Of a stretch of 64,000 nt of DNA, positions 2,620 through 49,957 are shown one piece after another (position 1 is the stretch's first letter; each line of letters begins with the position of its first letter). The translations under genes and the position numbers were made by a program. The stretch spans positions 18,972,001 to 19,036,000 of the forward strand of contig JBHGNT010000010.1 in NCBI GenBank assembly GCA_043228905.1, read 5' to 3'. The DNA is from Azolla caroliniana (Eukaryota > Plantae > Polypodiophyta). The notes below the pieces were generated by a model that did no database searches, was not told the origin of the DNA, and saw only the letters and a list, made by a program, of their open reading frames with translations.

Positions 2620-5435
2620 TTTTTTGGAGGGAGCCCGTGAGCTCGTCGTTGCCATCCGACAACTGGTCCGGAATTGTTTACGTCCTCGAGCCCGTGCGCT
2701 CACCGTTTGGAATCCGGGCTCGATCCGGATCGGGTACGCGTCCAGAAGCCATTCGACGAAGTTATCCGGGAAGGATCCAGACACTACTCCGGATAAACTC
2801 CCTCGTCTTACCGGCTCCTTGGTCCAAGTCCTCAGTGGTCTTGCCCCCATTTCAACACAAACCTGCGGATATCCGCGACATATTTGGTGAACCCAATGTG
2901 AACAGGGGCGACAAAGGAGTTCGAGGATGCGGGGGAGCGAGCTAGCGGAGGTGATGGCGGTGGTCGTTCATTGCCTGGTGAACGCTCGAGAGGGCACAAG
3001 CGCCCTCGATAGAGTCGTTGAGTCAATAGTCAACGCGATAGGTAGATTCGATGGCAAAGACACGATGAGCTATCTAGATGCCTACCGGGCTGAAATGATG
3101 ATGAGGGATATTCCGAAGTATAAATGACTGGCTGGATTCCCTCGGGTCGCTACGCCGAGCATCCACGTTGAGGTGCTCGAGGTGCAAGCGGACTGCCGTA
3201 ATATGGCAGATTTTGAGGGACGACTCCTCGAAAGGTACGACTTTGATGACTCGCTCTGGATGTTGAAGAAAGAATTTATGGATTGGGTCGGGAGCCTCGG
3301 CAAAGGCTGGAATACATTGATGTTTCTTCAGGAGTTCAAGGTGCGATTCACACAACCAGATCGTGCTCGACATGAGGAAGGTCCTGCTGTTTGTGAATTC
3401 GGTTGACTTGCTTGACCATGAGAAGATGGGTCTCCCCTTGGAGATGGATGAAGGGCTTATGACCGACTGGGCCGTGGCTAAAAGAGCGTGTAGCCATTTC
3501 GACAAACGACGCAATTGGAACAACGCTGGAATGCCATTGACCGGCTTGACTGCCGAGAAGAAACCGAAGGAACCGATTCCGACACGGTCGGAAGAAACGA
3601 GGCGGTGGCTTGAATCGGGCTTGACTCCGACCAACGCGGTCGCTGGACCGGCCGGGGGCACAACTCTGGAGGAGCTAAAGAAGATGGTAAGAGACCTTTA
3701 GATCGCTCAGGCCTAGAGAGAAGGCGGTGGTCAATCGCGCGGCCGGAGGCCACTGTTCGACCAGAGGTGTATGTGGTGCGACGCTGTCGGCCACGTTCGG
3801 AGAGACTGCGTTGATTTCGCCGAGGCGCTTAAGAGTAATGTAGTATACCTCTGGAACAACTGGGTACACTCTAGTGACACGCGAAGGCCCTTAGAAATAA
3901 AAACTAACTGAGGTGGAATGAAAAGGCTGATTGAGGAAGTTGTGGTGCGGCACGGGGAGACCGTCCATTACTTGGCATTGGTCGGTATTCGGGTTGGAGG
4001 GGAGAATGGGAAGGAGACGAAGGACCCCGGGTTTTGGCCAGTGGTGCTAGAAGGGTTCTTCGGGAAGAAGTTGGTACAGGAGGAGGTGGATCATACAGAG
4101 ATGCGGGTCCGAAAGGTAACCGAATGGAATGATCCGGTCGAGGAGAAAATCGGCTTCGTAGAAGCTGCGTGCCACAACTATGAGTTTTTGGTTGAGGACA
4201 AATGTGGTAGTAAGGTTGGGGGGGCTGGTCCCTCTAACTGGTATCAGAGCCGGAGCGGACTGAAGAAGAATAACGGGGGTTCGGTAGCCTCGTAGGAGAA
4301 GGTGAAGCCCCCGAGAGTCTAGTTGAGCTCGAAGATAGAGAGTGCGATGAACCTGCGGAAGGTCTTGGAGGAACGGATCCTCGACAGCCGGGTGGAACTC
4401 ACGCCGAGGGAAGTGTTGTGCATCGCCAAGAAGGAGTTCCAGGACAACATTGTCGACCTCATGAGGAGGAAGTAGCTCTCGACAGAGTCAGTGCCGGAGA
4501 GACCGATCGAGGTGACGGTGGCCCACATTGAGGAGGTGGCTATGGAATAAGAGCTTCTGGAATGCTACTACACGAAACCACATTGGGCAAGGGCTATGAC
4601 GGAGACCCCGGTCCGGATCGGGGATGTGCAGGAGCCGGTGGTGGCGCTAATCGACCACATATCGGAGATCAACTTGATGTCCCTGGACTTCCATAGGAGA
4701 GGGAAGTGGCCGATTAATACAAATCATGGGTGGAAGATACACGCGACGACCCACACTACGGAGGAGCTTCACGAAGCGTGCCCGAATGTACGGGTGAAGG
4801 TCGGGGACGTCGAAGTTGACCAACATTTCTTCGTGCAAGAGACGTCATCCCACACGGTAATTCTCGGAGAACCTTATATCACGACAGATCGAATAGAGAC
4901 AAAGTTGCTGGACTACGGTTCAATGTATGTGAGGGTGAAGAGCCAGGACGACCGACACTCCGTCCAGTTCTTGATGGTCAGACCGAACCATGAGCGGAAT
5001 CAGGATTCTCTCGGTGACGAAGGCAGAGAGGATTTTTAGAGAGGGCTATCAAGGCGTGGGGCCGTGATAGTTTGGACATCCGGAAGAAACCCCACACATG
5101 TACCATAGGTAGGAAATTTTGACCCTCTGTTAACGAAGGTTGTACCATAACCGGCATCGGTGGTCGGGAAAGGAAGCGGGTCGAAGGGCGCTTGAAGGCA
5201 TGCGAAGCCTTGGGCCCAGACGAAGAGATTGGTGGCGCCGTGGAGGCGGTCTCATTCGACGACACCCTCAGGGAGATCAAGAGGGTAGCCGAGGAGGACC
5301 TAACCGAAGACCGGATGATTCCAATCAATTCGATCGAGGTGTACGAAGTCATTGCAGACTTCGAAAGGGTGGTCAGATTGGATCGAACCGCCAGAGCAGA
5401 CACGAAATATAAGATTGTGGACCGGAAGGTGAGGT
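2620..5435 (+). mobile_element. Truncated degenerate Ty3/gypsy element (partial 5' LTR, PBS, gag, protease, start of pol)
   Basis: LTR end ...CCGCGACA at 2880, PBS TGGTGAACCCAATGTGAA at 2885-2902, gag with a CMWCDAVGHVRRDC zinc knuckle (~3768-3810), protease ALIDHISEIN (ORF 4596-5039), then pol N-terminus. Homologous to the element at 6435-13419. Many stops. Left boundary approximate. Confidence 0.85.
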
Positions 5436-6123
5436 CCACAATCTTAGAAGAGGAGGTGTACATGGTACAACCACTCGACTTCGAATCCAACATTCATCCG
5501 AAAGCTGTATGCCAACTCAAGAAGCCTCTCTACGGCCTCAAGCAAGCACCGCATGCTTGGCATTCGAAGATTATGCAATATCTTCATCAAATCGGCTTTC
5601 GAATGTCGAAATTCGACAACTCCCTCTACTAACGAAATGACTCTAGAAGCTCGATTGTCATCATCCTATACGTGGATGATTTGGTCATTGGAGGAGAAAG
5701 TTTAGTCGACATCAACCATGTGAAATCCCTCCTCTGCAACAAATTCGAGATGACGGACATGAAGGAACTTCATTACTTCCTAGGCATCAAAGTAATTCGG
5801 TTTCCGACCGACATTATGATCTCTCAATGACACTACATTCTCAACTTATTATACAAGTTCGGGATTACAGAGTGCAAATTTGTGGCAACCCCTCTCGATC
5901 GAAACCTCAAACTAGATGCCGTTTCCGGCACAGACGAGTATGAGCCGACTCAATATCGACAACTGATTGGGAGCCTCATCTATCACACGATCACTCGACC
6001 CGACCTCAACTATTCGGTTGGCCTCCTTAGCCAATTCATGCAAACTTCGCGAGATATCCATTTCGATTGCGCTAAGAGATTATTACGATACGTGAGCGGT
6101 ACAATGGATTACGACATCCTCTA
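5436..6123 (+). mobile_element. Ty1/copia reverse transcriptase fragment
   Basis: LEEEVYMVQP...LKKPLYGLKQAPHAW, ILYVDDLVI and TRPDLNYSVGLLSQFM are typical copia RT motifs. Contains stops. Fused directly to the gypsy fragment on the left and cut by an LTR on the right. Confidence 0.9.
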
Positions 6124-6300: not shown

Positions 6301-6434
6301 TTAGATGCATATACAAGTCACATATGTACTTAGGTAAAAAGTTGTAGTAAGTAGTAAGTAGAAGAGTGAGAGTAGTGCAGAGAGAGGAAGAATAAAAAAA
6401 CAGAAAACAGACGAGAGCGAGTTGAGCTCTGCGT

Positions 6435-7081
6435 TGTCGCGTTACTACGCGCGTGCGTGGAGAAACGAGGCGGGACCACCGGGGTCTTGAACCGAAGGGG
6501 CAGGTGATAGGAGGGGAAAGAGAAAGAGAGAGACGACCGGTTACGTATGAGCAAAGAAACACGGGGACACGGCTCGTCAACGCAGAAAACACGAATGGAC
6601 ACAGAGACAGAGAGACACGAAAGTTTGTATATTAACGAATAACAAATACACAACAGAGCATGCGAGCGGTTACAACCGAACAGGCCGGCGAACAGATGCC
6701 GATGCCTGTTCATCTGCGCATGAAAGGGGAAAAGGATGGAGGTGCTGCCGGAAGCACACGGGCGTTCCTCGAAGCAGCGCGAGCCTCCCGAAAACCTACA
6801 GAGAAGGGCAATAGAGAACAGAGGAGAAGCGTTCGGTTACGGTCCGACAACACTTCGTCCTCCTCAATGCGCGATCCCTTCTCCCTGCGTCTCCCTCTCC
6901 TTTATAGCTTCAAGAAGGGAGCCGTCTCTCTCATTTACTTCCTACCTACCGAATCTAACTACCCAGGATATGCCTTTGTACTTAATTCCCTATTATATAC
7001 ATTGACGGGCGCGCACGCGTGAAGAGCCGGTTCACGCGCGCTATGCACCGATTGCGCCAAGGGACGGTTTTCTTCACGACA
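6435..7081 (-). repeat. 3' LTR of the gypsy element (647 bp)
   Basis: Direct repeat of 12773-13419 with about 22 substitutions and no indels by manual comparison. PPT-like AGGTGGGGGCGGA lies immediately 5' on the minus strand (7082-7094). Confidence 0.95.
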
Positions 7082-10000
7082 TCCGCCCCCACCTAACCGC
7101 GCATCCACCGGTATGTGCCAAAATTGCGCTCTGGTTGGAGAAAACCGGTCCGGGCTCCGGTTCCTCGTCCATCGGTTCGTCCTTCGTCTTGGATTGTTCG
7201 TCGTCGTCGTCCAGGCCTCTTAGATCCGGTTCGCCGTCGTGGCGCTTCTTGAACGCTTTGATCCTCTTCTCCGCTACCGGTGTCGCCATCCTCGTACCGT
7301 CGAGTTCCGCTAGGTGATACGTCCCGTTGTCGTTGGCGCTCGTTACCACGTAAGGCCCGAACCACCGCTTTGCAAACTTCCGTGTTGCCCGATGCTGGTT
7401 GTCGAGGCTGCTGTCGTAGACTAGCACCCAGTCACCTTCCTCGATTTTCTTCGGTCGGAGCCGGTGCGTTCGGTCGAACCGGGCTTTGTTCTTCATCCTT
7501 GCCGTCCGATGTCTCTCCGCCGCTCGTTCCACGTCCTCTGGCCTCCGCTCGAGCTGTCGTATACGCGCCGCTAGCAGTTCTTCTCGACTCATCTCGTCTC
7601 TCCAGTCTACTGTCGCCCAAGAGGAGATCGTCCGTTCCATCAGCATGATCGGCTTCTGTCCGAACATGAGCTCTGACGGCATGAACCCGGTTACCGAACC
7701 GTGCGTTGTCCGGTCCGCCCACAAGGCATAAGGTAACAGCCGTGGCCAGTTCCCAACCTGGCCTCCGCACACCCGGACTAGCGCTTTGACGATCGGTTCG
7801 TGTCCGCGCTCCACCTTCTCGTTCACCTCCGGATTGTACGCTGTGGTGAGCGAGAGCTTGACCCCTAACCGGTCGAATTGCTCCTCGGCCTCTTCGGCGT
7901 CCAACTCCCCGTGGTCAGCCACGATCTTCCCGACGCACCCGTACCGGCATATCACATCCTCGATTAGAAACCGACACACGGCCACGGTCGTTTTGTTCTG
8001 TAGGGCTCAACCTTCCACCTGGTTCGTCAGGTCCTCCCGGGCAGCACCAGATATCGCATCTGCCCTACGCCCATCGGCATCGTCACCAAATCTACCATCC
8101 ATTTGAAGTGGATGGCCGGAGGGTATGTAGGGTGAAGCTCGTCCCGATGTCGGACTATGAAGTGCATTTGACAGCTCTCACAAGTTGTCACGAACTGATG
8201 CACGTCCCGGTACAGTCCCGGCCACCAGTACTTCCCCTTTAGTTTCTCGAACGTGGCCCACGTCCCACGGTGTCCAGCCCAGGGGCTGTCGTGGTAGGCC
8301 TTCAACAACTCCTCCTGTTCCTCCTTCATCGCCACTACTCGGAGCGGGATGCCGTTTCTCTTCTTCGGGTGCTTCCACAAGTATCCGTCCCGGAGAAAGA
8401 ATCGGTACGCTTTCTTCCAGATCCGGTTGGCCTCGTCCCTTGTCCATGACGCGTCCGACATCATCGTCCTTAAGAATCCCCCAATCTGCAGCCACTCCCC
8501 ATCGTACTTGCTCTCGTTGAAATCGTTAAGCGCCGGAGTGCTTCCCCCCTCGGTTGTTACATAAGCCGCCTCAAAGAAGTCTACGCCGACTTCCTTGTCC
8601 TCCGAAACCATGCCGCCCTCGTCGTTGAATCGCACCCTCGAAAGCATGTCGGCCATGGCATTGTCTTTCCCGGAAATGTGTCGTATTTCCGGATCCAGGG
8701 ACTTGATGTACGCTATCCACCTGAGCATTGCCAGGTCGGGGGTTGCGCATCCGGAAACCGTGCCGAGAATCGGCAGCCAGTCCGTCTCGATAATCACCTA
8801 TGTCTCGATCAAATAGTCTTTATCGACCTTCACCGCCGAAACGATACCCCAGAGTTCGCGTTTAACCTGGGCGTATCCTCGTTGTTGCTCGCTGAGGACC
8901 TTCGCGCCGAACCGGATTGGGAACCGAATGCCGTCCTCATCTTCTTGGTTGACGACCCATCCGACCCCGGTTAGACTCGTATCTACCGTTATATAGATGG
9001 GAATGCCTTTCTCGTAGACAGCCTTCCCGAGTGCCGGAGCTGCAGCAAGAGCCTCCTTCATCTTTCGGACCGACTCCGCATGCTCGTCTCGCCACTCGAA
9101 TTTTCGCCCCTTTTTCAGTAACCCGTATAGCAGCTCGGCAACGTGGGCGTAATGCGGGATCCATATGTGGTAGAACGCGCATGCTCCCAAGAACCTCCGT
9201 ACCTCCGTGACCGAGTTACAGTCGGGCTTCATTGCGGAGATGGCTTCCACCTTAGCCGGAGATGGTTTCCGGCCATACGGTTCGCATAGATGTCCGACGA
9301 CCATGATCTCTGATTGCCCGAAGGCCGATTTCTCCCCGGAGAAGGTGAGCCTCGCGTCCTCTAGCCTCTGCAGCACCCTCTCGCAGTCGTCAACGTGTGT
9401 CGCCACGAATTTCCGGCATCCGTCCGGTCCGATCGTTTCGTCCTTGTCTTCCACTGGACATCCCTTGATCGGGATATCGTCCAAGAATGGCATGGTGATG
9501 TCCGGGATACAATCCCTCAACACGTTGTTCATCGCATTCACCATGTGGGCCACCGAGTTCGTCCCTCCTTGTGGCAGGTTACACATCCGCACTAGGCCGA
9601 GAGGAGTCCGCATCGTCGTAATGTCTCTGCTCTCTACGGCTAGTTGGAACTGATCGTACCCCGAGTACAGATCATCGATCGTGTAGATCGACCTTCCGGC
9701 GAAGGCCTCCGCAAACTCGTCTATCGTTGGTCCGATTCCTGCGTTCCGAATGGTCACTCTGTTGACCGGTTGCAGGTCTTGAATAAAGCGCAACGTCCCG
9801 TTCTTCTTCGGTACAGTAAACCACCGGTTCGAGTACGGAGCACTCGACGGTTCGGGGATGCCCATATCGACTTTCTGCCTCAACAGCTCCATCAGCTCCG
9901 GGATGGGAGCTCTCGGTACCGGAATTGGTTTGAGATTCCACGGTACATGCGGTACTGTGAATATCACCATCGGCTTCACGACTGTCGGGTCTACGCACCC

Positions 10001-10660
10001 GATCTCTCCCGGCGAGAATGCGAAGGCTTTCCCGTGCCTTCCGAGCATTCTCCGAAACCGGTCTTCTTCCGCCGGCAGTAGGAACCTGCCCCCACCGATT
10101 TTGAGCTCCCGTAGCGTTCTGTCGGTGAAGGTGTGTCCTATGCAGGCCGGATCTCGTAAACTGGGGTCCGACGCGACCCCCTTGATTCGCAACTCGCTGC
10201 CCTCCGGTAAGGGTGCCGCGACGGGCCTTACCTTCCGGTCCACAGTCTTGTACTTTGTGTTAACCCGGGCCGTCCAATCCGACTCGAGCCCTCGACTGAA
10301 GTCCGCGATGACTTCGTACATCTCTTCTGAACAAACTGGTATCGTCCGGTCCTCTTTAAGGCCCTCTCCGACCACCTCTCGCAGTATTCCCAAGGTGTCG
10401 TCGAAGGAGACCGCCTCCACGGCTCTGTTGATTTCCTCGCTGGGCCCGAGAACTCCGCACGCCCGAAGTCGCTCTTCCGGCCTTGTCTTTTCTCGGCCAA
10501 CGACGCCGACTATCGTACACCCTCCGTTGTCGGAGAAACAAAACTTCCTACTTATGGTACAAGGTTTCTTTGGTTTCGCCTCTATCGTACATTTGTGGGG
10601 TTTTCCTGGAGTGTCCGGACTGTCGCGGCCCCACGCCTTGGCAGCCCTCTCTAAAAATCC
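7074..10660 (-). pseudogene. gypsy pol (RT, RNase H, integrase), disrupted
   Basis: RT: WFTVPKKNGTLRFIQDLQPVN, DLYSGYDQF, LPQG, FLDDI. RH: ITVDTS...ELWGIV...DNAMADMLSR. INT zinc finger: YHDSPWAGH...CESCQ. INT core: IVADHG...YNPEVNEKVER, WFGPY. Split across ORFs 8798-11137, 8027-8797 and 7074-7985. Confidence 0.9.
10595..10660 (-). other. Predicted -1 ribosomal frameshift signal (G GAU UUU + pseudoknot)
   Basis: gag-PR ends GAG GAT TTT TAG and pol continues in the -1 frame (GFLERAAKAWG). A stem and a loop-to-downstream pairing follow. Conserved at 5030-5095 (+) and 16528-16593 (-). Confidence 0.75.
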
Positions 10661-12728
10661 TCTCGGTTCTCGCCACCGAGGGACTCGCGGTTTCGCTTGT
10701 GGTTCGGTCGCACCGTCAGGAACTGGACCGAATGACGCCCGTCTTGACTCTTGACCCTCGCGTAAGCTGACCCGTTGTCCAGCACCTTGGTCTCCATTCG
10801 CGTTGCCGTAATGTACGGTTCTCCCAGTATGACCGGGTGCGAGGACGTCTCCTGCACAAAGAAGTGCTGGTCTATCTCGACGTCGCCGATCTTGACCCGC
10901 ACGTTTGGGCAGGCCCCATGTAGTTCCTCGGTGGCGCGCGTCGCCACCCGTATCTTCCACCCGTGCTTGGTGTTGATCGGCCATTTCCCCTTCTTGTAGA
11001 AGGTCATGGACATTAGGTTTATTTCCGAACCGTGGTCCACTAGCGCCACCATCGGTTCCTGAACATCTCCGATCTTCACCGGGGTTTCCGTGGTCGCTCG
11101 GGCCCAGTGTGGCCTCGAATAGTGGCTCTCCGCACACTCGTCTTCCAGCGCCATGTCCTCTATGTGCGTCGTCCGCACCTCCACCGGCCTTTCCGGTTCT
11201 GCCTCCGTCGACAGCCTCTTCCTCTTCACCAAGTCTACGATGGAGTCGTGGAACTCCTTCTTGGCGATTCCGAGCACCTCCCGCAACGACAGTTCCACCT
11301 TGCTGTCGAGGATTCGTTCTTCCAGGACCTTTCGTAGGTCCGTGGTCCTTTCAATCTCCGTGCCCAAACGGTATCCGCCCTTCTTGTGGTTATCCCGGGC
11401 ATTGGACTCACCGGCCTCGTTCCGTTTCGGCCCGAATCGGGTTTCGTATTTTTGTGAGGGTCCGGCCCCTCCAGTTTTACCTACCCGTTTGTCTTCAACC
11501 TGAGCCTCGTAGTTCTGGCAAGCTGCTTCGACGAAACCCGTCTTTTCTTCGACCGGGTCACTCCACCTGGTTACCCCCTGAACCCGCTTCTCCGCGCGGT
11601 CCGCCTCGTCTTTCTTTAGTCGGGCACCGGCGAGGCCTTCTAGCACCGTTGGCCAGAACCCGGCTTTGCTCTCCTTCCGGGCCTCGCTGCCTCCGGCCTG
11701 AATAACGGCTGACGCTGAGTAGTGGACGGTCTCCGCATGCCGGGCCGCCGCCTCTTCCATTAGCCTTTTCATTCCTCCTCGCCCATCGTTTCGGTTCAGG
11801 GCCCTCCGGGTATCGCTGGCGTGCACCCGACCTTCCCACAAGTACACTACCAGGCTTCGTCACACCACATGCACCTATTTCCTGCCGGAGGCCGTCGGTC
11901 ACGAGCCTGATCGCCGCCTTCCCTCTGAGCCTAGGCGATCTGGAGATCCTTAACCGCTCGTGTCAACTCCTCCAAAGTTGTTCCCCCGGACGAGCCTCTG
12001 ACCACGCCGGTCGAAGCCGAACCAGTTTCGAGCCACTCCCGGGTCTCTTCCCGTCACGCCTGCGGTATCGGCCCGAGCTTTCTTGCTGCGACAGGTCCCG
12101 CCCCAGTCGCCTCTGTATCAGCCCACTCCCACCGTTTGTCAAAACGGCCGCAAACTCTTTTTACCGCGGCCAAGTCAACCGTCAGCCCGTCTTCGGTTTC
12201 CAGTAAGGAGCCCACTTGCCCCCGATCCCGTGCGTCAACCGATTTGACAAACAGTAGGACACGACTCGTGTCCAGAACGGTCTGATCGAGCGCCGAAAGG
12301 CGCGCAAAGCGTTCCTCAAACTCCCGGAGGAGTACCAACGCATTTCTTTCTTTGTTGGGGGACTCCACCCACTCCATGAAGCCCCGCTTCGAAAGTCGAA
12401 GCGCGTCATCCAACCCGTATTTCTCTAGGAGCCATCCTTCGAACTCCTCCCAGGTCTGGCTCTCCGCCCGGACCTCGAGCACCTCCGCATGAATGCCCGG
12501 CATCGCCACTCGAGGGAATCCGGCAAGACGCCTCTCTTCCGGAATATCCCTCATCAATATCTCCGCCCGGTAGGACGCCAAATAACCTGTGGCATCCTTT
12601 CCACTGAACCGGCCGATCATACTGACGATCGCCTCAATAGCCTTGTCAAGGGCGCCGGTGCCCTCGCGCGCGCTCACTATCCGGTCCACGGCCGAAGCCA
12701 TGGTCTCTGCAAGATCCGACCCCCTCAT
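10651..12728 (-). pseudogene. gypsy gag-protease ORF, disrupted
   Basis: ORFs 12054-12755 and 10651-11847. Protease motif ALVDHGSEINLM ... VILGEPY. Premature stops and a deletion in the zinc knuckle. Confidence 0.85.
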
Positions 12729-12750
12729 CTTCTGCTCCTCTGCCGCCTTT

Positions 12751-12768
12751 TTCACGTCGGGTTCACCA
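12751..12768 (-). other. Primer binding site complementary to the tRNA-Trp 3' end
   Basis: Minus strand reads TGGTGAACCCGACGTGAA, 4 nt after the 5' LTR. The plus strand TTCACGTCGGGTTCACCA matches the plant cytosolic tRNA-Trp 3' end as I recall it. Confidence 0.8.
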
Positions 12769-12772
12769 AATA

Positions 12773-13419
12773 TGTCGCGTTACTACGCGCGTGCGTGGAG
12801 AAACGAGGCAGGACCACCGGGGTCTTGAACCGAAGGGGCAGGTGATAGGAGGGGAAAGAGAAAGAGAGAGACGACCGATTACGTATGAGCAAAGAAACAC
12901 GGGGACACAGCCCGTCAACATAGAAAACACGAATGGACACAGAGACAAAGAGACACGAAAGTTTGTATATTAACGAATAACAAATACACAACAGAGCACG
13001 CGAGCGGTTACAACCGAACAGGCTGGCGAACAGATGCCGATGCCTGTTCGTCTGCGCACGAAAGGGGAAAAGGATGGAGGTGCGGCCGGAAGCACACGGG
13101 CGTTCCTCGAAGCAGCGCGTGCCTCCCGAAAACCTACAGAGAAGGGCAGTAGAGAACAGAGGAGAAGCGTTCGATTACGGTCCGACAACACTTCGTCCTC
13201 CTCAATGCGCGATCCCTTCTCCCTACGTCTCCCTCTCCTTTATAACTTCAAGAAGGGAGCCGTCTCCCTCATTTACTTCCTCCCTACCAAATCTAACTAC
13301 CCAGGATATGCCTTTTTACTTAATTCCCTATTATATACATTGACGGGCGCGCACGCGTGAAGAGCCGGTTCACGCGCGCTATGCACCGATTGCGCAAAGG
13401 GACGGTTTTCTTCACGACA
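12773..13419 (-). repeat. 5' LTR of the gypsy element (647 bp)
   Basis: Direct repeat of 6435-7081, followed on the minus strand by the PBS. Confidence 0.95.
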
Positions 13420-15024
13420 GCGTGTAATGAAGTAGAAGCTTTTTGGACTGTGCAAAGGTAAGCCTCCTTCCCCTTCCCCTTTCTATCTTGAGCACTGAAC
13501 GATCCAACACATCATGATCCGCTGTGCACATAGAAGAGTCGTAGCGCCTTCTTAACATGGTATCAGAGCAAAGTTGCTCATAAAGAAGATTAGAACAGTA
13601 TAGAGATCTGAGAAGTTTGTTTCTGGTTGTTGATCTGAACCAGAGAGAGTTGTTTGTGATGTTAACCCTAGTTGAAAGAGAAAATGGCTACAGAGAATGC
13701 AAGCCAAATAGTCATAGAAAAACAGGATAAAAACAATTTCCTGGCGTGGAAATTCAAAATGACAAACTTCCTTATGGGGAAACGATATTGGGATTATATT
13801 GAAGGAGACCTAGAAGAGGCTCCAGAGATCCCTGAAGAAAATGCATCTGCTGCACAAATTAAAGCATTTAAGGAATGGAACCAAGGGGCAAGAAAGGTAT
13901 TGCATTGGTTGTCACTTAGCATCTCAGATTCGATGCTTGGACACATACAAGATACTATGCTTCCAAAAGAAACTTGGGACAGTTTAGCAAAACTGTTTGC
14001 AGTGAATACAAAGGCAAGAAAGCTTCAGTTGAAGACTGAGCTAAATACCTTGGATGTCAGTGAATGAGTATGCTTTGAAAATAAAGATCATATGTGAATC
14101 ACTTGCTTCTATCAATGTGAAGGTAGAAGATGATGATAAGGTGGAAATATGCTCAAGAGGTTTAGGACCTCAATATAAAAGCTTCAAAACATCTATTCTC
14201 ACAAGGGATAACATTCCAAGTTTTCCAGATTTGGTTTCAATGCTTGTAGTAGAAGAAAGAAATCAAATGGATGATGTAAACAAAGGAAACTCAAAGAATG
14301 AGAGGCAAGTCCTCTACAATAGTGTTGGAAGAGGCCATGGAAGATTTGGTTCAGCTAGAACCAAGAACAACAATTATCAAGGAAGAGGACAACAGGCCGT
14401 AAGTGGAAGAAACAACATTAGAGGTAGGGGGAGCAATCGAGGAAGAGGTAAGCAAACCTATTTGAATAACGATGGGTGTTGGTATTGTGGAAAACCAGGC
14501 CATACATAGGCTGAATGTTATAAAAAGCAAAATGATGAAAAAAGAGGGAAGAGACAGCAAAATAATTATGCCTCAACCAGTGAAGATTGTGATAAAGATG
14601 GTGCATTTGTGATGCAACATGAAACAACAGCAGTGGCTGAATGTTCACAGAGATGCAATGAAGAGTTTATGTGGTATGTAGATTCTGGGGCATCTAATCA
14701 TATGATAGGACATAAAAACTGGTTTGAAAGTCTAAGAGAACCAGAGATTCATAGTTATGTACAGACAGGTGATAATACTACTCAGCAAATAGAGCATGTT
14801 GGAGATATCCCATTGTGGGAAGAAAAAGGAAAAACAAAGTATATGCTGAATGTTATGCATGTTCCAAACCTTGCAAAAAATCTGATTTCTGTTGGACAGA
14901 TAGTAGAGCAAGGAATGCAAGTGAAGTTTAAGCAAAGTGGATGCTTCATAGAGAAAAATGGAAAGCTCATTGCAAAAGGAAAACGAGAAGGAAGGATGTT
15001 TGTGTTAGATGTCGATATGCCTAG

Positions 15025-16735
15025 GAAGATTACAACCCTTGGTTCCCTCGACGGCTTTCGTCTGCTCCTTCCCCGTATCGTCTCGTCGGTGATTCTTGGT
15101 CTCTCGCCGCCGCCTAAAGAACCCGTAGAGAGGTTCTGCGACATGTGCGTAATGCGGAATCTAGAACCCTTCATCGCGGAGATGGCTTCTACCTTTGCCG
15201 AGGACGGCTTCCGGCCGTAAGGCCCGCATAGGTGTCCGACTACCAGGATCTCTGGCTGCCCGAAGGCTGATTTTTCCCCGGAGAAGGTGAGTCGCGTGCT
15301 CTTGAGTCTATGTAGCACCTTTTCGCAGTCGCGGATGTGATCCGTCACAAACCTCCAGCAACCGTCGGGCCCAACCGACTCGTCCTTGTCCTCCACCGGA
15401 CATTCTTTGATCGGGATGTCGTCCAAAAACGGCATGGGGATGTCCGGGATGCAGTCCCTCAACACCTTGTTCATCGCATTCACCATGTGCGCCATCGAGT
15501 TCGTTCCTCCTTGCGGCAAGGTACGCATCCGAACTAGGTCGAGAGGAGTCTGCATCGTCGTGACATCCCTGCTCTCTACGGCTAGTTGGAACTGATCGTA
15601 CCCTGAGTACAAATCCCCGACCGAGTAGATTGACCTCCTTGTGAAGGCCTCCGCGAAGTTATCGATGGTCGGTCCGATACCTGCGTTTCGAATGGTCACC
15701 TTGTTGACCGGTTACAAGTCTTGTATGAAGCGCAGTGTGCCGTTCTTCTTCGGCACGGTAAACCACCGATTCGAATACGGGGCACTCTACGGTTCGAGGA
15801 TGCCCATCTCCACCTTCTGTTTCAGCAGCTCCATCAGCTTTGGGATGTGAGCTCTGGGTACCGGAATCGGCTTGAGATTCCACGGCACATGCGGTACCGT
15901 GAAGATCACCATTGGTTCCACAACCTTCGGGTCTACGCACCCGATCTCCTCCGGTGCGAATGCGAAAGCCTTCCCGTGCCTCCCGAGCATTCTCCGAAAC
16001 CGGTCCTCCTCCGCCGGCAGTAGAAAACCACCCCCACCGATCTTGAACTCCCATAGCGTTATGTCGGTGAACGTGTGTCCTATGCTGGCTGGATCTCGTA
16101 AACTTGGGACCGACGCGACCCCCTTTATCCGTAACTCACTGCCCTCCGGCAAGGGTGCCGCAACTGGCCTCACCTTCCAGTCCACAGTCTTGTACTTCGT
16201 ATCCACTCAGGCCGTCCGATCTGACTCGAGTCCACTACCGAAGTCGGCGATGACTTCGTACATCTTTTTCGAACATACCGGAATCGTCCGGTCCACATTA
16301 AGGCCTTCTCCGAACACCTCCCGTAATTTCCCCAAGGTGTCATCGAAAGAGACCACCTCCACGGCTCCGCTGATTTCCTCTTCAGGCCCGAGGACTCCGC
16401 ATGCCCGGAGTCACTCCTCCGCTTGTTTCTTTTCCCGGCCAACTACGCCGGCTATCGTACAACCACCGCTATTGAAAAACCAAAATTTCCTACCTATGGT
16501 ACATGTGTTTTTGCCTATAGTACATCTGTGGGGTTTTCCCGGGGTGCCCGGACTATCGCGGCCCCACGCCTTGATAGCCCTCTCTAAAAATCCCCTCGGT
16601 TTTCGGCACCGAGGGTCTCGCGGTTATGCTCATGGTTCAGTCGCACCGTCAGGAACTAGACCGAGTGATGCCCATCCTGGCTCTTGACTCGCGCATATGC
16701 CGAACCGTTGTCTAGCACCTTCGTCTCCATGTGCG
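15025..16735 (-). mobile_element. Third gypsy copy, internal fragment (end of protease, frameshift site, RT) with deletions
   Basis: ORFs 15787-16206 and 14782-15699 (GDLYSGYDQF, PFLDDIP) are near-identical in protein to pol of 6435-13419. A deletion follows KVEAISAMK and the sequence is lost after IPHYAHVAEPLYG. Confidence 0.9.
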
Positions 16736-16765
16736 CCGCCGTGAGCAACTCCGCCGAGGCTGAAT

Positions 16766-17929: not shown

Positions 17930-20448
17930 AGTTATTGGGCTGACCAATTCCAACACAACTTGAGATTTGTCATTAAGAGGAGTTGAGTGGACATTGCCGA
18001 TGGTGGAGAAAAAAACCTCTTGTGCTTTTATCACCAAAGTCATCCCCTCCTCCTGATGCTTGTATATGCCAATTGGGGTCTGCCATGATAGCCAACATAT
18101 ATTTCCCCACTTGATTGAGCCTTGCACCTGGCATATTCGATGGGACATTGGGCAGTCCCACATAGCATGTCATATTGATTCTACTGCATTTGGGCACTCT
18201 ACACAATTAGGAGAGCTAAGGTTCCCACGTCGCCCCTCCCCTTATTTTTAGACTACCCCACTCCTCATCTTTCATAATTTCAGCATCTAAACTCTTACCC
18301 CTCCCTCTAATTTTCATAATTCTACCCTCTACCCCTCCCCCTAGTTTTACATATTTTACTTGTACCCCTCCCCCTAGTTTTCATGGGTACATATGTGCCA
18401 ATCGGGTTGTACTTTGATCGGATCAGGATCTACAATCCATTTATGACCAGTATACACAAGTACTCGAATTGCATTATTCTGTGTTGGTGTCTTAGTGTCT
18501 CGCAATTCAGAGTCTTCGATCCTATCTAGTGTTCCCCTACCTCTCGGGATCAAAGATCCCTCCTCCTCGTAGCCTACCCATTTCTCCATTGTCGTCCTTT
18601 GAGTAGTAACTTCCCTAATAAATAGAGCGTTAATGATTTCCAATCTCATAGTCCATCCACCCCTGATTCCATGGAGTATGTTGGCTTGATCTTGTAGTGG
18701 TCGTGACATAAACCGTCTCCAACATTCTATACTTTCTCCTGGACCTTCTACAATGTATCCCCATGACAACCCCTTACTTGATCCAAGTAGTTGATTAAAT
18801 TCATGCTTGATACATGGGTTCCATAGGATACGTTGACTGAGCTAGGCAGGTTCGAAACTCGGTTGATCGCACTTGAGCCCTTGTCTAATGTCACACCATG
18901 CCTTCCACATGGATGCACTAAATCTATCCTCCAATTGGCGGGAGAAACTAGGTTTGAGATCCATGTTTAGAATCCATCCCATTTGGGGGGCCCAATTGAC
19001 CCCTTTTTGTGGCCTAAAGTAGGCGAAACGTAACCGCAATAGCATTTTCCAACAGTCATTTCCTGGTTTGAGTCCTCACACCACAAATTTGGCAAGTAAG
19101 GCTTTTGATTGTGAGAGGGGATCAATAAGACCCAATCCCCCTCTCGACTTAGGTGTTGTGAGCATAGGTCACGCCACCTTAGGTGCGAGTTACATGATCT
19201 TCCTTACCAGACCAAATGTAGTTGTGTACCAGTCGTTGAATTTGATGTATACTTTCCTTTAAGATTGTCCAACATGATAGACTGTACCATGTTGTTGCGA
19301 GTAGTACCTGGTTTGCCACTATGATGCAACCCGCTAGTGATAGTTTTTTCGAACTCCAATGTATCAACTTTTGTCGAATAGAATGGATAATGAGTGCAAT
19401 CATAGTCTCTGGTAGTATTTGGAGACCCAAATATTTGGTGCTCGCTCCTTGAGTGATCCATTTGAAAGCGGGATGTGGGTGCCATGCAGGATGTGTTTCA
19501 TGAGACAGGCTTATTGCACAGGATTTGTGCCAATTGATCATGGCATTGGATCTCTTGCAAAATACAACTAACCCACTTTCTAGCTTTTGTAGGTTTTCCA
19601 AGTCCCCTTGCAGGTAGACCGTTGTGTCATCTGGAAATTCTATATCCAAGATCCTTTGGTGAGAATGAGGCACGGGAAGACCACGTAGGTTGAGATGCCA
19701 TGAGTTGAGAAAGCAAGAGAGTACTATTGAAACGCAACTGCTACCATTCCTATAAAGTCCTACAATGCCTTTGATCCATGTCTCTTTCTTGAAAGTTCCA
19801 GCATACCCTGTCATATGTTTTCTCAAAATCTAGCAACACCACCGTTACCTTGTTGTTGGTACGCTTGGCAAGGGCTACTGCTTCCCAGAATGAGAAGAGG
19901 TTGTCTAGGATGCTCCAATTTGTAACGAAACCTGTCTGGGATGGATGAATGAGTTGAGGGAGAAGTGGTGTTAAACGGCGTGCCACGATTTTTGCGAGCA
20001 ACTTATAGACAGTATTGAGAAGAGTTATGGGCCGCCACTTGCTAATGTCGTTGGCACTCCCACCACTTTTAGGAATGAGATGTATCATCCCCTGTCCAAA
20101 TTCCTCTGGCATGTTTCCAGAGGTGATGATCTCCTCATATGCCTGGAGGAGGTCTTCTTTAATAGTGTCCCAAAGGCATGTGTAAAAGTGAGGGGTGAGG
20201 CCGTCGATTCCGAGGTAACTATCTACATCCAAATCAGAGAGGGCCTCCCATATCTCGATGATTGATAGGGGACACACGAGCCATGTATTCATTTCCGTCG
20301 TGACTTTCTCGGGTATGCTGTGGAGGATAATATCTTCTCTTATGTCTTCCCCTGTAGCCATAGTATCTTCGATAAGTAGGCACTTATAGTAACTTGTGGC
20401 AATATTCCTCATGTCATCGTCATCCTTAGTGGTCGTTCCATCCTCCAT
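17930..20448 (-). mobile_element. L1-clade LINE ORF2 fragment (RT to zf-RVT), degenerate
   Basis: GIDGLTPHFY, WRPITLLNTVYKLLAK, QTGFV, LLDFEKTYDRV, EFPDDTTVYL, KLSLAGCIIVANQVLLA. Same family as 1251-2590 but in the opposite orientation. Confidence 0.9.
18232..18382. repeat. Degenerate ~33-bp pyrimidine-rich tandem repeat replacing part of the LINE
   Basis: ACCCCTCCCCCTAGTTTT-like unit repeated 4-5 times; absent from the homologous copy at 1251-2590. Confidence 0.65.
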
Positions 20449-23400
20449 AATATTCTTACTTTAACATAAGATTATGCATGGTGATGTTGCTATCTATAAG
20501 TGGTACTTTTTGGCTTTGAGTTAATTAGTAGGGGATGAATATATCAATTACAAGATTTTATGATGAGTTTCGCTATGATATCCTTGAGTGTTTTTTACCT
20601 TGAAATGGTCGCTAGCATCATATGTGCTACCCAGTTTGAGGGAAGTATTTCACATGTGACAATTATGCACAAAAGGTCTAATCATTTATTGTTGGGCACC
20701 ACATTGTAGCAAAATGCTAGTGAATCGCCACATGCAATGACTTGTTAGGGCCATGTATAGTTTTTATTCAATATTTTAAAATGAGTGTTATAAGTAAGAA
20801 AGCGTCAAGACTTATAAAATCAATAAAACACAGTACAAACTAGCAGTTCTCAAGTAACATTAAATCAACTTCTCACAGGGTTTGAACTGCTAGCACAAAT
20901 AATTGAGTTTTTAGTAAACTTCTTTCTATTACAACAATTCTCATTCATCATGAGTTGTTATTTGCATAATCAATCCAATAAACTACTCTTTGTTTATGGA
21001 TAAAATATCAATGTGGATCTTTTGCTCATCTCCATTTTCAAGTTAAGAGCTCTTTTCCAATCCATTTGTTCTTTTATTCTTCTATACCTTTACGCAAGTT
21101 CAAGGGTTTATCTTATCCAAGGGCTTCAAATATTTACTTTTCACAGTCACAAGGAATAAAATATTCTCATCGTTTTATTGCCAAGATAAGTGGTATGGAA
21201 ATGTTAACTACCATGAACTATTTGTCAATCTTTTTTTTTTCCAAAAAAACATTGCTTCGCATTAGTTTGCAAACAAAGTACATCAAAGTTCAACCATTAA
21301 GATCCACAAGGCCTAACCTTAGGGAGATCTATATATCCAACAACTCCGAAAACCAGCAGCAAATTCAGCAAAACTCACGTTGGCCTTCCCCTCACAAATC
21401 TTATCATAATCCCATCTAGCTTCATGATATGTAAACATCATGAGGACGTGGTTTCCAAGCTTCACATAGTTTACAAATTTCTTATCAATTCAACACAATA
21501 ATCTCTTCCGATATATGGCCTTTAGAATGTCATTTGTCTTGCTTCTTTTGTCACATGTTTAGTGGTGCAACATATGAATATCTCATCAAGTTATAACATT
21601 GACTTAGTAAAAGAATACTATATTTGAAATAGAGGTGGTAAACACATATGACCAATATAACATAATGTGAAATGCACAATAAGAATATTTTAGTGAAATA
21701 CATGCTAAGAAATAATTCAATTCGTTCTTTTTAATATAATTTTTATATTACATATTTTAAGTAGTCAAAAAATTCCCAAAGCTCTGAGTTTGAATAATGC
21801 ATGATATAGATTTTTTTATTGTACAACAATCAACATCGTTGGACTTTTAGACTTCAATTAGCAAGAGAGAAAATCAATGGACTTTTGATTGTTTTAAATT
21901 TACACAGAAGCATAAATATTTTGCAGTTACAACAACACAACAACATGAGATTGACTCACCGCCCAACCATCCATTATATAATCATCTCCATCGACGTGCA
22001 ATATTTTTCTATGTTTCACACATGGGGTTTGCATTCCCTCATGCCTTTATACACATGTTTGATTATTATGTTATGACCATTGTAGTGCTCATGTCCGTCG
22101 ACAATGTATTAGGCATTTCATTAATTATGGGTGTTCTCTCTTTAGAATAGTAGTGTAAATTTTTGAGCTTTGAAGATAAGACATTTATCTTATTCCTTGT
22201 ATGAGAGAATTCTATTTTTGAATTATATGTGTCTGTTGTCAAGGTTTGTTAAAAAGTGTGAAATGCATGTTTCTTACTCTCTCATGTAAATGGAATGAGA
22301 AAGGCATGTGATCGTGTCCAAGTAAATGCAAATTGGTGAGTTGGACCTGCTTTTACACTAAATTCACATAATCCAAGCAAAATCAGGAGGTTGGAAGAAA
22401 GGGGCAAATACAAATGCATAACACAACAAGAAAAAGAAAACAAAGAGCATGTTAAAATGATTTGTTCTTCATCATCCACATGTGGGCAGATAAAGAAATC
22501 CATGGGATAGGAAGAAGGGTTAAATGATTGCAAGTGGTTCGAAGTCATACAAGTGAAACCAAGAAAGTGTCATTATGGAAGGACTAAAATGTATGCCACA
22601 TTTCCAACTGAAATGGAAGAGTTTAAAACTAGGTCAAATGTTGTCATTGAAAAGGATATTATTTTCTTTTCACATCTCATGTAATCCAACATTACGTAAT
22701 TTTGAGGAAACCCATTGATAGTGCCATTTCACAAAGCATACATACCCTCCTAGTTTGTATCGAGTATTTCGTAGATTGTTTAAATTATCTATTAATAATC
22801 AATAATGCTATAACCAAGATGAACTTCTCTCATTGTCTTAGGGTAAGGAACTCAATGTGACCTTAAGACAATAAAGGTAGTCCATTGAAACAAACCCTAC
22901 ATTGGCATATTGTAATTAACTAGTGTAATACTAGAGGTGTTATAAATAAAGCCAATCTAGAAGCTATAAAAACGCATGGCTTAGTCATTTGAGGCTATTT
23001 TACTCATTAGTGCATTGCCTTGAAATTTTAAAAGGATTGTTGGGTTACTTAAGAAACACAAAAAGTCTTCCTTTTTTATTCACCGACATTAAAGAAGGAC
23101 AATATATTTCTACTTACATTTGCAAGTTACTTACAAGAAATTGTGTTCATCCTACAACATTACGTTGTTTTATATGACATTCATTTGTATATGCAATGTG
23201 CACTACTTAGTGTTCATATATGCACTAACAAGTGTACATCTACATGATTTTGCACCTGTTAGCTGAAAAGCAAAAGCAAAACTCAGAGAAGATTGCATAC
23301 ATATGGGGTATACGATACCATAATTTCAATACCCAATTTGGAAGGTCCATGTGTTTGATTATGGAAGACATTGGATGAGCTAACTATTTGAATCTTGGAG

Positions 23401-40700: not shown

Positions 40701-40826
40701 ACTAAGCACAACAAATAAACGCAATACATAACAAGAAAACAAAAAAGCAAAAGAAGAAGCGAGAGAAGGGTGAAAGAAGGGTGAAAGAAGAAGAAGAAGA
40801 AAGAGGAAGGAATAAAGAAAAGAGTC

Positions 40827-42477
40827 ATGGGCCATGGAAAGCTTGAGAATGTCCTCATAGAGAAGAAGGGGAGCAGGAAAGATTGCTTCAACAAAAGGAA
40901 CAGAGGAATATTGAAGAAGTTGTACCAACTCGCATACATATCAGGATGCGGTGTCCACCTTGTCATCCAAGCGGAAGACGGGAACATCTACGAATTCCAT
41001 CGGAAAATGAACCCTCTCCTCCAGAACACCATATTGCAAGCCTCCCTCCTCAATTCCTCTTCCATGAAGAACTCTTCGTCTTCGTCTTCATCTATGTCTT
41101 CGTCTTCGTCTTGTCCTAATCCATTGTTATCCAAAGTTGTCAATGTCCCCAACACTAGCAACTCCACTAGTAGTACTCCTAGGCCTTCAAAAATTACTAA
41201 CAAACGTATGTTCTTTAACGGAGTCAAAACCATGGACACCGGCCTCACTATATCACCCCAAGAGAGAGTTGCCATGATGAACCCTTCTTCGTGCTCTTGC
41301 TTCGATTGTCGGAAAGGCTTTAGTAATCGGTTTGTCGAGTGTATCGACCCTACCAGCTACATGGACAAACCTTTCATCAATAATATTCAATGTCCTAGTT
41401 TCCATGGTCATGATGATGTGATAACCCACCCCATCAACCAATACTCCTCACATATTGACCAGGACATTAGTAAACTCCCTTTCACTTATACAAGTCCCAG
41501 TTTGCCCCACTACAACTCTAGCAATTTCATGGGCCGATTTGCAACACCCTCACCACATCCAGGTGGACTACTTCCTCTGGTAACGACGGCAACTCATGAT
41601 GCATTAGAAGATCGCTGTGAATTAGAATTCGAACAATCCGGTAATTCCAAGATCTTTCTCTATCTGAACTCTCCCTCTCTAATTACCTCATGCTTTTATC
41701 ACCTTATATATGAAACTTATCATCATGTTAACTAATATCATCATTAACTAGATATTAAGGTAGTAGTAACTTATCCCATAAGCATGCTCATGCAATAGGA
41801 AGCCATCGCAACCAAGTCAAGTCAAGTTAGTCTCCAATCTCTTCAACCATTAAGCAGTTTTGATTGCATTTATGTATTTGGGTGGGGTCTCCACTAACTA
41901 GGCTTTGGGTCTAGACATGTCTAGGGTTTAATTAGGGTGAGCAAGTTCTTCTTCTTCATACGTTTTGTCTTCAATCAATTAATGTCTACATATCTTGGTA
42001 CAATTGTACATACATATAATCATAGGATTAATGGGGCTTAGGGATACAAGGTAATTATTTGTGAGTTATGTTTGTGATTATGACCACGAACATGACCCCA
42101 TATTTTTAATATTACTTTGTCTCATCCCAGAAATTACCAAATGTGATGAACAACATGAAGAACAATTGATTCGGTATAGGGATGATGGGGTGGAGAACTC
42201 ATTGACGCCAATTGTGGAGCTGCCCAATATTTCCCATGAAGACATCATGCTGAGTACTAACCTACCAACAAAAGCTTCCTTCATTCTTTCAGAGGAGTTT
42301 GTAGCAGATGGAACACATTTCAGAGGAACCGATACAAGTTTCACTAGTGAAATGGACACAATCAAATCCTATTTTGGCTTCAATCCATTCAATGACTTTG
42401 TGAATGCTAGTGATTCTTTACATTTCCATAGTCACGTGAAGGAGGAGGTTCATGGTGGCATATTTAAGATTCCTTAA
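40827..42477 (+). CDS. Divergent MADS-box (type I-like) transcription factor, probably 2 exons, ~386 aa
   Basis: N-terminus MGHGKLENVLIEKKGSRKDCFNKRNRGILKKLYQLAYISGCGVHLVIQAEDGNIYEF aligns without gaps to the MADS consensus. Predicted exons 40827-41640 (G|GTAATT) and 42131-42477 (CCCAG|) join in frame (1161 nt). The unspliced ORF would end at 41735. No K-box seen. Confidence 0.75.
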
Positions 42478-49449: not shown

Positions 49450-49957
49450 TGCATTCCCCACGCGGTCTGTCTAAGTATTGACGAGGCGTAGAATGAATGA
49501 GATTGAAGATATCTCGTGGTGTGATCGATGAGGACAGAGCTCCAAAAAAAAGAGGTTCTACTGACCGATGCGATCCCTAGAGAGAAGCTCATACGAGTTA
49601 CGTACATAACAAGGGATCCGGCTACACACGAAACTACAAGAGTCCATGTCGGTAGGCCCGAAACACACACACACACCACACTCACATTGGCAAGAGTGAA
49701 TGAATGTAGCCATGGAAAAGTATTTGTCTTAAGCTATGAGAGAGAGAGAGAGCCTTCCACTTTCCCCTTTGAAGAGATATAGTACATACATACATACATA
49801 CATATTGATATATCATAGATTCATATGTATGTATGTATATGTCTCTCAATTTTCCTCCTTGGGCTTCCCCTGTTCCACTTGTGTGTCAAAATATCCCCTT
49901 CCCCTGTTTCACCCTCTCCTCTCCTTTCATTCTCAGAAGAGACATAACTGTCAGTCC

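Follow-up and report, generated by a model that had tools for sequence, protein, structure and literature searches.

How reverse transcriptase and integrase are made by an LTR retrotransposon whose polymerase region lies out of frame with its Gag and protease is the question raised by a gypsy element in the Azolla caroliniana DNA analysed here (a stretch of 64,000 nucleotides, hereafter the window; positions given without a locus name refer to it). Its first open reading frame (ORF1) ends after the protease, and reverse transcriptase (RT), RNase H and integrase are encoded downstream of it, one base back. We read the junction as very likely a programmed -1 ribosomal frameshift placed after the protease, with a predicted H-type pseudoknot as its stimulator, and give this reading, which is drawn from sequence comparison and RNA reads, a probability of about 0.87.

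According to the proposed scheme, most ribosomes would stop at the UAG codon and release Gag-protease, and a minority would stall at the pseudoknot with the Asp and Phe tRNAs on GAU UUU. Re-pairing of these tRNAs on GGA UUU would give a Gag-protease-linker-RT-RNase H-integrase protein. The expected outcome is scarce RT and integrase, with one protease per Gag.

The element and its copies in the window

The element is a complete but decayed gypsy LTR retrotransposon on the minus strand (6435-13419, 6985 bp). Its two 647 bp LTRs, the 5' LTR at 12773..13419 (TG...CA) and the 3' LTR at 6435..7081, differ from each other at 22 positions. The primer-binding site (12752..12768, minus strand) has an identical sequence in many relatives and is presumably matched to tRNA-Trp; no tRNA gene was found in the window. 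A purine-rich tract (7082..7094, minus strand) precedes the 3' LTR. The target-site duplication GCGT, which fits NCGN, occupies 6431..6434 on the left and 13420..13423 on the right, and the ends of the element are confirmed by empty-site joints in two DNA runs, which lead from 6430 to 13420 with four shared letters and skip 6431-13419.

ORF1 (10651..12728, minus strand) comprises gag, a DUF4100 region and the protease; pol (7161..10660, minus strand, -1 frame) comprises a linker of about 130 residues, RT, RNase H and integrase, and stops about 80 bp short of the 3' LTR. Both frames are damaged: ORF1 is interrupted by a stop (12054-12056) and breaks frame near 11857, and pol is interrupted by a stop (8798-8800) and breaks frame near 8042. 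An earlier reading of the window, made from sequence only, had already divided the coding region into an ORF1 with gag and protease and a -1 frame with RT, RNase H and integrase; domain searches, fold searches and frame reading bear this out.

The junction signal of this element is the second of three in the window. Copy 1 (5030..5095, plus strand) lies within a truncated element (about 2800-5437) and copy 3 (16528..16593, minus strand) within an internal fragment (about 15100-16745). All three are decayed, the -1 frame being open for 620 codons in copy 2, 30 in copy 1 and 60 in copy 3, and function is therefore attributed to intact family members. Copy 1 ends at the start of RT and continues in frame into a Ty1/copia RT fragment (5437-5632, plus strand; RVT_2 match).

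Several other features were recorded in the window. An ORF at 40785-41735 (plus strand) has an SRF/MADS-box domain at its start and is apparently a single-exon MADS-box gene. A 636-codon ORF at 49733-51643 (plus strand) is host-gene-like, with a repeat-rich N-terminus and no Pfam match at E 0.01. The regions 1251-2320 with 17930-18820, 19179-20460 and 57890-58654 contain related repeats arranged as an inverted pair (82-87% identical) and LINE-like RT fragments recognised by eye.

Domains of ORF1

The protease domain (10714..11094, minus strand; Asp codon of the DHG motif at 11037) is missed by Pfam at E 0.01 when the long ORF is searched, and a short piece gives weak protease matches below the curated cut-off. 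A PDB sequence search with the protease profile returned no match. Comparison of the last ORF1 domain with aspartyl-protease clusters gave an Atlas score of 0.97, and the structural model (mean pLDDT 65) has Ddi1 and retroviral proteases as its best matches in the fold search. By its predicted model, the domain preceding the ORF1 stop is a retropepsin fold, a question that the fold search settled.

The active-site motif is DHG (11029-11037, minus strand) as against DTG or DSG, and DHG is found in 283 of the 360 homologues with a motif match, 37 of these matches having likely caught another motif. Directly upstream of the protease, ORF1 has a Pfam DUF4100 match (11215-11442, minus strand). DUF4100, a family of unknown function, is part of Gag in these elements.

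Two-frame layout in related loci

A scan of metagenome contigs confirmed 187 relatives; the best 80, together with one locus from a genome bin, make up the 81 loci used here. As 78 of the 81 stem from one series of assemblies, host breadth at the DNA level is narrow. The sole locus from a prokaryote genome (L081) is likely plant DNA in a bin, and none of 19 pattern matches in viral contigs was a relative.

A fused protease-RT frame, which the sequence-only reading had named as an observation that would speak against frameshifting, occurs in none of the 81 loci and in none of 83 stop-to-stop gene calls. The latter are 706-899 aa long; their end is DF or [DG]F plus five residues in 76 cases, and GF or NF in five more. 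The slip site could be located in 71 of the 81 loci, the other ten being truncated, chimeric or mutated there. RT motifs are out of reach in 24 of these 71 and are reached in 47, among which 39 are open in the -1 frame from the heptamer, two in the -2 frame, and six are broken. Clustering at 90% identity gives 36 clusters, and 14 of them have a whole pol of 1145-1203 codons counted from the heptamer. The same offset, with pol frames whole, is shared by families that are 56-70% identical in protease DNA.

The -1 frame of the 14 whole-pol families is closed by a stop 1-38 codons upstream of the heptamer (one codon upstream in L021 and L078), with no AUG between, and the heptamer is therefore the only slip entry into the pol frame. 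A longer overlap or an earlier shift, to which the 230 open -1 codons upstream in copy 2 might point, was rejected, since the intact families have 1-38.

Slip site and RT are separated by a conserved linker of about 125 residues (10270-10660, minus strand; L004:1135-1560). It has no family match, and its Atlas matches are weak. One locus carries a tandem duplication of the junction region (L056:1290-1900).

The slip site

ORF1 terminates in GAG GAU UUU UAG, with the stop codon at 10651-10653. The slippery heptamer G_GAU_UUU (10654..10660, minus strand) takes in the final two gag-protease codons, Asp-Phe, and is followed by a 6-nt spacer (10648..10653, minus strand), the UAG stop being its first three bases. 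Heptamers start at 10660 (minus), 5030 (plus) and 16593 (minus) and are in zero frame in all three copies; GGATTTTTAG sites occur in the window at exactly these three places. Nineteen columns over heptamer and spacer are identical across the three copies, and mean column identity is 84%. The signal coordinates given by the sequence-only reading proved exact, and all parts of the signal are indeed present in the three window copies; the strand detail was corrected, the minus strand being the one that carries copies 2 and 3.

Codon choice at the site was examined in 68 loci picked by their Asp-Phe protein tail alone. The tail is encoded as G GAT TTT in 63, as G GAT TTC in four and as A GAT TTT in one low-coverage copy, so that an in-frame slippery G GAT TTY is found in 67 of the 68. 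These loci are related, not independent trials, with protease DNA identity reaching down to 56%. Upstream protease codons provide the background: GAT encodes 162 of 299 Asp residues, TTT encodes 65 of 171 Phe residues, and G precedes 100 of 298 Asp codons. At the protein level, the residue before the tail is one of the ten for which a G-ending codon is possible in 68 of 68 DF-ending proteins (identified after an anchor, among 294 proteins, 121 without the anchor being left unclassed). DNA variants remain slippery, namely G_GGU_UUU in L076 and G_GUU_UUC in L079, and a stop directly follows the heptamer in 33 of the 36 clusters. Taken as sequence evidence, codon choice at the slip site supports a presumptive working -1 signal.

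One point against this signal is that G_GA is a non-homopolymeric P-site triplet, with imperfect re-pairing. G_GA is described as an accepted exception to the XXX rule of -1 slip sites, pea enation mosaic virus RNA 2 slipping on G_GAU_UUU and dianthoviruses having G_GA, in the sections consulted of PMC5009743. Dianthoviruses are listed among users of -1 frameshifting, with the sequence omitted, in the corresponding part of Firth and Brierley (2012).

Ten distant proteins end near DF. Three Riccia sorocarpa records (P0361, P0391, P0402) and P0283 have ORF1 ends of the form ...RRVFPDSLL or ...KVFD; given these protein ends, a Val-Phe type of site may be present in a liverwort too.

Could Pol instead arise by independent initiation, or by re-initiation at an AUG within the linker, possibly on a shorter RNA, with the structure aiding initiation or packaging? 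Of 16 intact families, 14 have a methionine at pol-frame codons 102-113, about 20 before RT, and L068 has an in-frame AUG immediately upstream of the slip site. This methionine is, however, absent from L021 and L063, and the position of the first AUG is scattered from codon 3 to codon 111. In 39 loci the whole linker is open from the heptamer, and purifying selection acts on the first 130 codons (dN 0.17, dS 0.66 between L059 and L068); both observations speak against a start near RT. Read ends form no pile-up, which is a weak observation at the given depth, and internal initiation leaves the fixed synonymous choice of G GAT TTT unexplained. We regard such initiation as very unlikely.

The predicted pseudoknot

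Stem 1 of the predicted pseudoknot in copy 2 pairs 10640..10647 with 10617..10624, both on the minus strand. The 5' strand of stem 2, GUGGGG (10629..10634, minus strand), lies within the stem 1 loop, and its 3' strand, CCCCAC (10595..10600, minus strand), follows past a 16-nt loop. Stem 1 matches the earlier description except on two points: copy 2 has one C.A mismatch, and in copy 1 the 3' strand closes with UUU, which forms G-U pairs, in place of the UCC described.

Junctions were scored by a simple search for H-type folds starting 4-9 nt past the heptamer, the score being a stacking sum and not a full energy model. The search covered 38 junctions (L033 was excluded as truncated), and the same geometry was recovered in most of them. 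Scores of -25 or below were obtained for 31 of the 38 junctions, as against 14 of 896 random positions in the same loci and 5 of 760 shuffles. Dinucleotide shuffles of the window copies reached the native score in 3/200, 0/200 and 1/200 cases for copies 2, 1 and 3. The seven junctions that miss the threshold include L047, which has an intact pol and a poor fold, and stem 1 is sometimes lost when longer stretches are folded with plain ViennaRNA. Rfam gave no match to 10400-10800 at E values up to 5.

Compensatory change was assessed for each stem. Stem 1, in a nearly gap-free alignment, shows 84% pairing versus 23-43% with slid partners; both sides have changed in seven of its ten pairs (reached in 4 of 500 shuffles), and there are 25 further pair types (reached in 0 of 500). 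Stem 2 occurs as GUGGGG/CCCCAC, GCAGGG/CCUUGC, UGAGGG/CCCUCA, GCGGGA/UCUCGC and GUGGGA/UCCCAC, and its observed score was reached in 0 of 2000 partner swaps. The 3' arm of stem 2 begins at column 61-64 in 34 of the 38 junctions; this arm was placed by free search, and the covariation counts are inflated by sequence kinship. The stems overlap pol coding sequence, and protein constraint can explain part of their conservation. The comparison nevertheless indicates a predicted structure 6 nt downstream of the heptamer that is kept through compensatory change, and this covariation, with the fixed spacing, supports a presumptive working -1 signal. The functional recoding element proposed in the sequence-only reading is thus favoured by layout, codon choice, stem covariation and spacing alike.

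A narrower alternative accepts the -1 shift and assigns its stimulation to the stem 1 hairpin or the adjacent stop only, stem 2 serving RNA dimerisation or the like, or being a by-product of G- and C-rich codons. With 4-8 pairs, stem 2 is indeed short, and in L047, L055 and L079 it is weak. The stop found next to the heptamer in 33 of the 36 clusters would also suit this alternative, the stop 3' of G_GAU_UUU being described as important for the shift of pea enation mosaic virus in the relevant section of PMC5009743. Against it, the stem 2 partners covary at a near-fixed distance, and both stems are kept in L055, L073 and L076, families without an adjacent stop. We hold it to be very improbable.

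Transcripts and gene models across the junction

From two poly(A) runs of a related organism, 611 reads fell on the window element, those over pol being mostly sense. The RNA alleles agree with L004, an intact member, at 32 of 34 positions, and in three runs 638 reads on L004:1-3200 cover the junction continuously. These 638 reads contain neither a splice joint nor an indel, at a depth of 4-16 per run at the junction, and no such splice joint is among those listed for the window copy (15 of 299). About one eighth of each run was sampled, at which a minor spliced form would be missed. Unspliced transcripts span the junction in the related organism, though inactive copies may be their source. 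Within stem 1, 37 reads cover L004 position 1150, and 35 of them carry a pair-preserving change. Reads over the protease region (10412-11355; L004:430-1180) have both orientations, versus mostly sense over pol.

Thirty eukaryotic gene models of relatives (Physcomitrium, Riccia, Adiantum) include fused proteins of 1042-1981 aa. Their joins are scattered within one family, with 62-185 residues between two anchors. From this scatter, and judging by the protein sequences, we rejected the fused models as probable predictor introns bridging the frameshift, and a frameshift would explain the scattered predicted introns in the gene models of these loci.

Pol expression by splicing had been named beforehand as a finding that would count against frameshifting, and the 638 reads, at their low depth, show no joint. 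The corresponding model is an Ogre-like intron that excises the stop and joins protease to RT in some transcripts. It has the precedent of the spliced Ogre junction (part of PMC6317226 consulted) and the gene models that join both frames, and intact families commonly have an AG at +39 (12 of 14) and a GT at -53 (9 of 14). The RNA, however, offers no joint on L004 or among those listed for the window copy, and scattered joins are typical of predictors bridging a frameshift. There is also no stop-filled spacer: the open pol frame begins at the heptamer, and A+U makes up only 42-68% of the region. An intron of this kind appears scarcely more plausible than stimulation without stem 2, and a little less so than internal initiation.

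In principle the frames could also be joined by slippage during transcription or by editing of the RNA within the U run, or the offset could result from decay of formerly fused elements. Five U residues do stand at the slip site, and the window copies are decayed. RNA reads, however, have no inserted or missing letters at a 10% cut, and the offset is common to families with whole pol that are 56-70% identical in protease DNA. These explanations are hardly credible.

A sister branch with a -2 offset

The two families read in the -2 frame, L059 and L068, are 77.5% identical, stem from separate assemblies and form a clade with support of 100/99. Candidate -2 junctions were placed at L059:2830-2920 and L068:2492-2580. 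Pol lies in the -2 (= +1) frame and is open for about 1150 and 1100 codons, respectively. The junction reads CAG GUU UUU GAC UAG in L059 and CAG GUU UUU UAC UAG in L068, and the -1 frame closes at once in L059 and after six codons in L068. Between the two, dN/dS is 0.10/1.15 for pol and 0.10/1.23 for ORF1; such purifying selection means that pol was still being maintained well after the origin of the offset. In the L059 cluster, five complete ORF1 proteins of 724 aa end in QVFD, an end reached by 6 of its 15 listed members, the other nine being shorter pieces. A contig error as the source of the offset was rejected, because two separate assemblies have it and the QVFD end recurs.

The same pseudoknot is predicted in both families but starts 5 nt past the heptamer. 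With this 5-nt spacer, a -2 slip would bring the knot into the register that it has in the -1 families. In engineered constructs, -2 shifting is most efficient with spacers 1-2 nt shorter than those for -1 (part of PMC3458567 consulted), and a knot one base closer in the -2 families would agree, as predicted, with the mRNA-tension model. G_GUU_UUU itself is the -2/-1 site of arteriviruses, according to the passages seen of PMC6675879 and PMC4937337.

We rather favour a -2 shift of L059 and L068 on G_GUU_UUU. Points against it are that two families with DNA are at hand, that P-site re-pairing is poor and that L068 has an AUG next to the site. A +1 shift was rejected as a common explanation, UUU U permitting it in L068 and L059 having UUU G. 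An antizyme-type shift at the stop was also rejected; the knot would begin inside the stop codon, which is probably too close.

With slightly less confidence, a little above even odds, we propose a wider picture. One clade spread over mosses, liverworts and ferns would set its RT level by pseudoknot-driven frameshifting after the protease, and one of its branches would have exchanged a -1 slip (G_GAU_UUU, 6-nt spacer) for a -2 slip (G_GUU_UUU, 5-nt spacer), the knot being kept in place relative to the pol frame. If true, a structure-driven -2 frameshift would occur naturally in a mobile element of eukaryotes, and evolution would itself have tested the mRNA-tension model. Being one base apart in spacing, the two sister signals (-1 and -2) form a pair for relating spacer length to slip direction on plant ribosomes.

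Two known systems resemble this branch. Arterivirus nsp2TF shares with it G_GUU_UUU and a product in the -2 frame, but uses a C-rich CCCANCUCC motif about 10 nt downstream together with nsp1-beta and PCBP proteins, not RNA structure, in the account given by the portions seen of PMC6675879 and PMC4937337. By inspection, the C-rich CCCANCUCC motif is absent from L059 and L068, where the pseudoknot is predicted. Spacer-dependent -2 shifting on U6A has the shorter spacer in common and differs in being known from engineered constructs, as described in the part seen of PMC3458567.

Classification and comparison with known systems

The target duplication, the lack of a chromodomain and the close Physcomitrium homologues point to the Phygy clade, and we call the element Phygy-like, the tree built here covering this family only. 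GCGT on both sides of the one element agrees with the 4-bp NCGN duplication of Phygy, and the two share a short element filled by coding sequence. No chromodomain match was found by Pfam at the end of pol, and there are no extra ORFs. A primer-binding site for tRNA-Trp is a further Phygy trait, which the conserved site here may share. The protease has relatives of about 56-70% identity among Physcomitrium patens predicted proteins. At 6985 bp the element is below the Phygy range of 7656-9968 bp, size being called weak for classification in the portion seen of the survey by Neumann et al. (2019, PMC6317226). There the coding organisation of Phygy is given as 'ND' and the clade as P. patens-specific, whereas the relatives found here include Adiantum and Riccia records.

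The openly accessible literature searched, mostly by titles and opening lines, yielded no prior description of a post-protease frameshift in plant retrotransposons. In the text consulted, Atkins et al. (2016, PMC5009743) count no more than two plant types whose frames are separate, each of them +1 and described as a puzzle. No plant case with slip site and pseudoknot is named in the portions seen of Oberlin et al. (2017) and the 2025 review PMC12786077, and an overlapping-frame class after the protease is missing from the survey table as seen in PMC6317226. On this literature, the -1 slip site with a predicted pseudoknot after the protease appears to be new, the plant split by an intron or a stop being already known.

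Gag excess over Pol in plant LTR retrotransposons is known mainly from splicing cases. The junction described here offers a precise, testable -1 signal of about 70 nt from a clade that is present in high copy number in non-seed plants, and its natural variants number in the dozens.

Among plant elements, Ogre and Retand (Tat) likewise have Gag-protease and RT-RNase H-integrase in separate ORFs, and calling the gag-pro/pol split a retroviral layout, as the earlier reading did, was too strong (part of PMC6317226 consulted). The same source describes the Ogre junction as a spliced spacer or a stop, and that of Retand as a single in-frame stop (49%). A Retand-type stop is ruled out here, as pol is outside the gag frame. 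An Ogre-type non-coding spacer is absent, and the 638 reads, of low depth, contain no RNA joint. Tat elements carry an additional RNase H, whereas Pfam finds one RNase H region here. Tcn1 and Selgy of non-seed plants also combine two overlapping frames in a plant gypsy element, but the overlap lies between Gag and protease, and neither slip site nor stimulator is given in the portion seen of PMC6317226.

Retroviral -1 shifts, such as gag-pol of Rous sarcoma virus and pro-pol of MMTV and HTLV, share the heptamer, the short spacer, the pseudoknot and the shift into RT; a shift located after the protease is also seen in MMTV and HTLV, which however need two shifts, according to the sections consulted of PMC5009743. 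Retroviruses use other heptamers, and the element here is a plant retrotransposon without env. The protease of Rous sarcoma virus is encoded in gag.

Closest in the slip site are umbraviruses and dianthoviruses, with the same heptamer (pea enation mosaic virus RNA 2), a close stop and plant ribosomes. Their stimulators, as described in the same sections of PMC5009743, pair over a long range, from kilobases away, whereas a compact local pseudoknot is predicted here.
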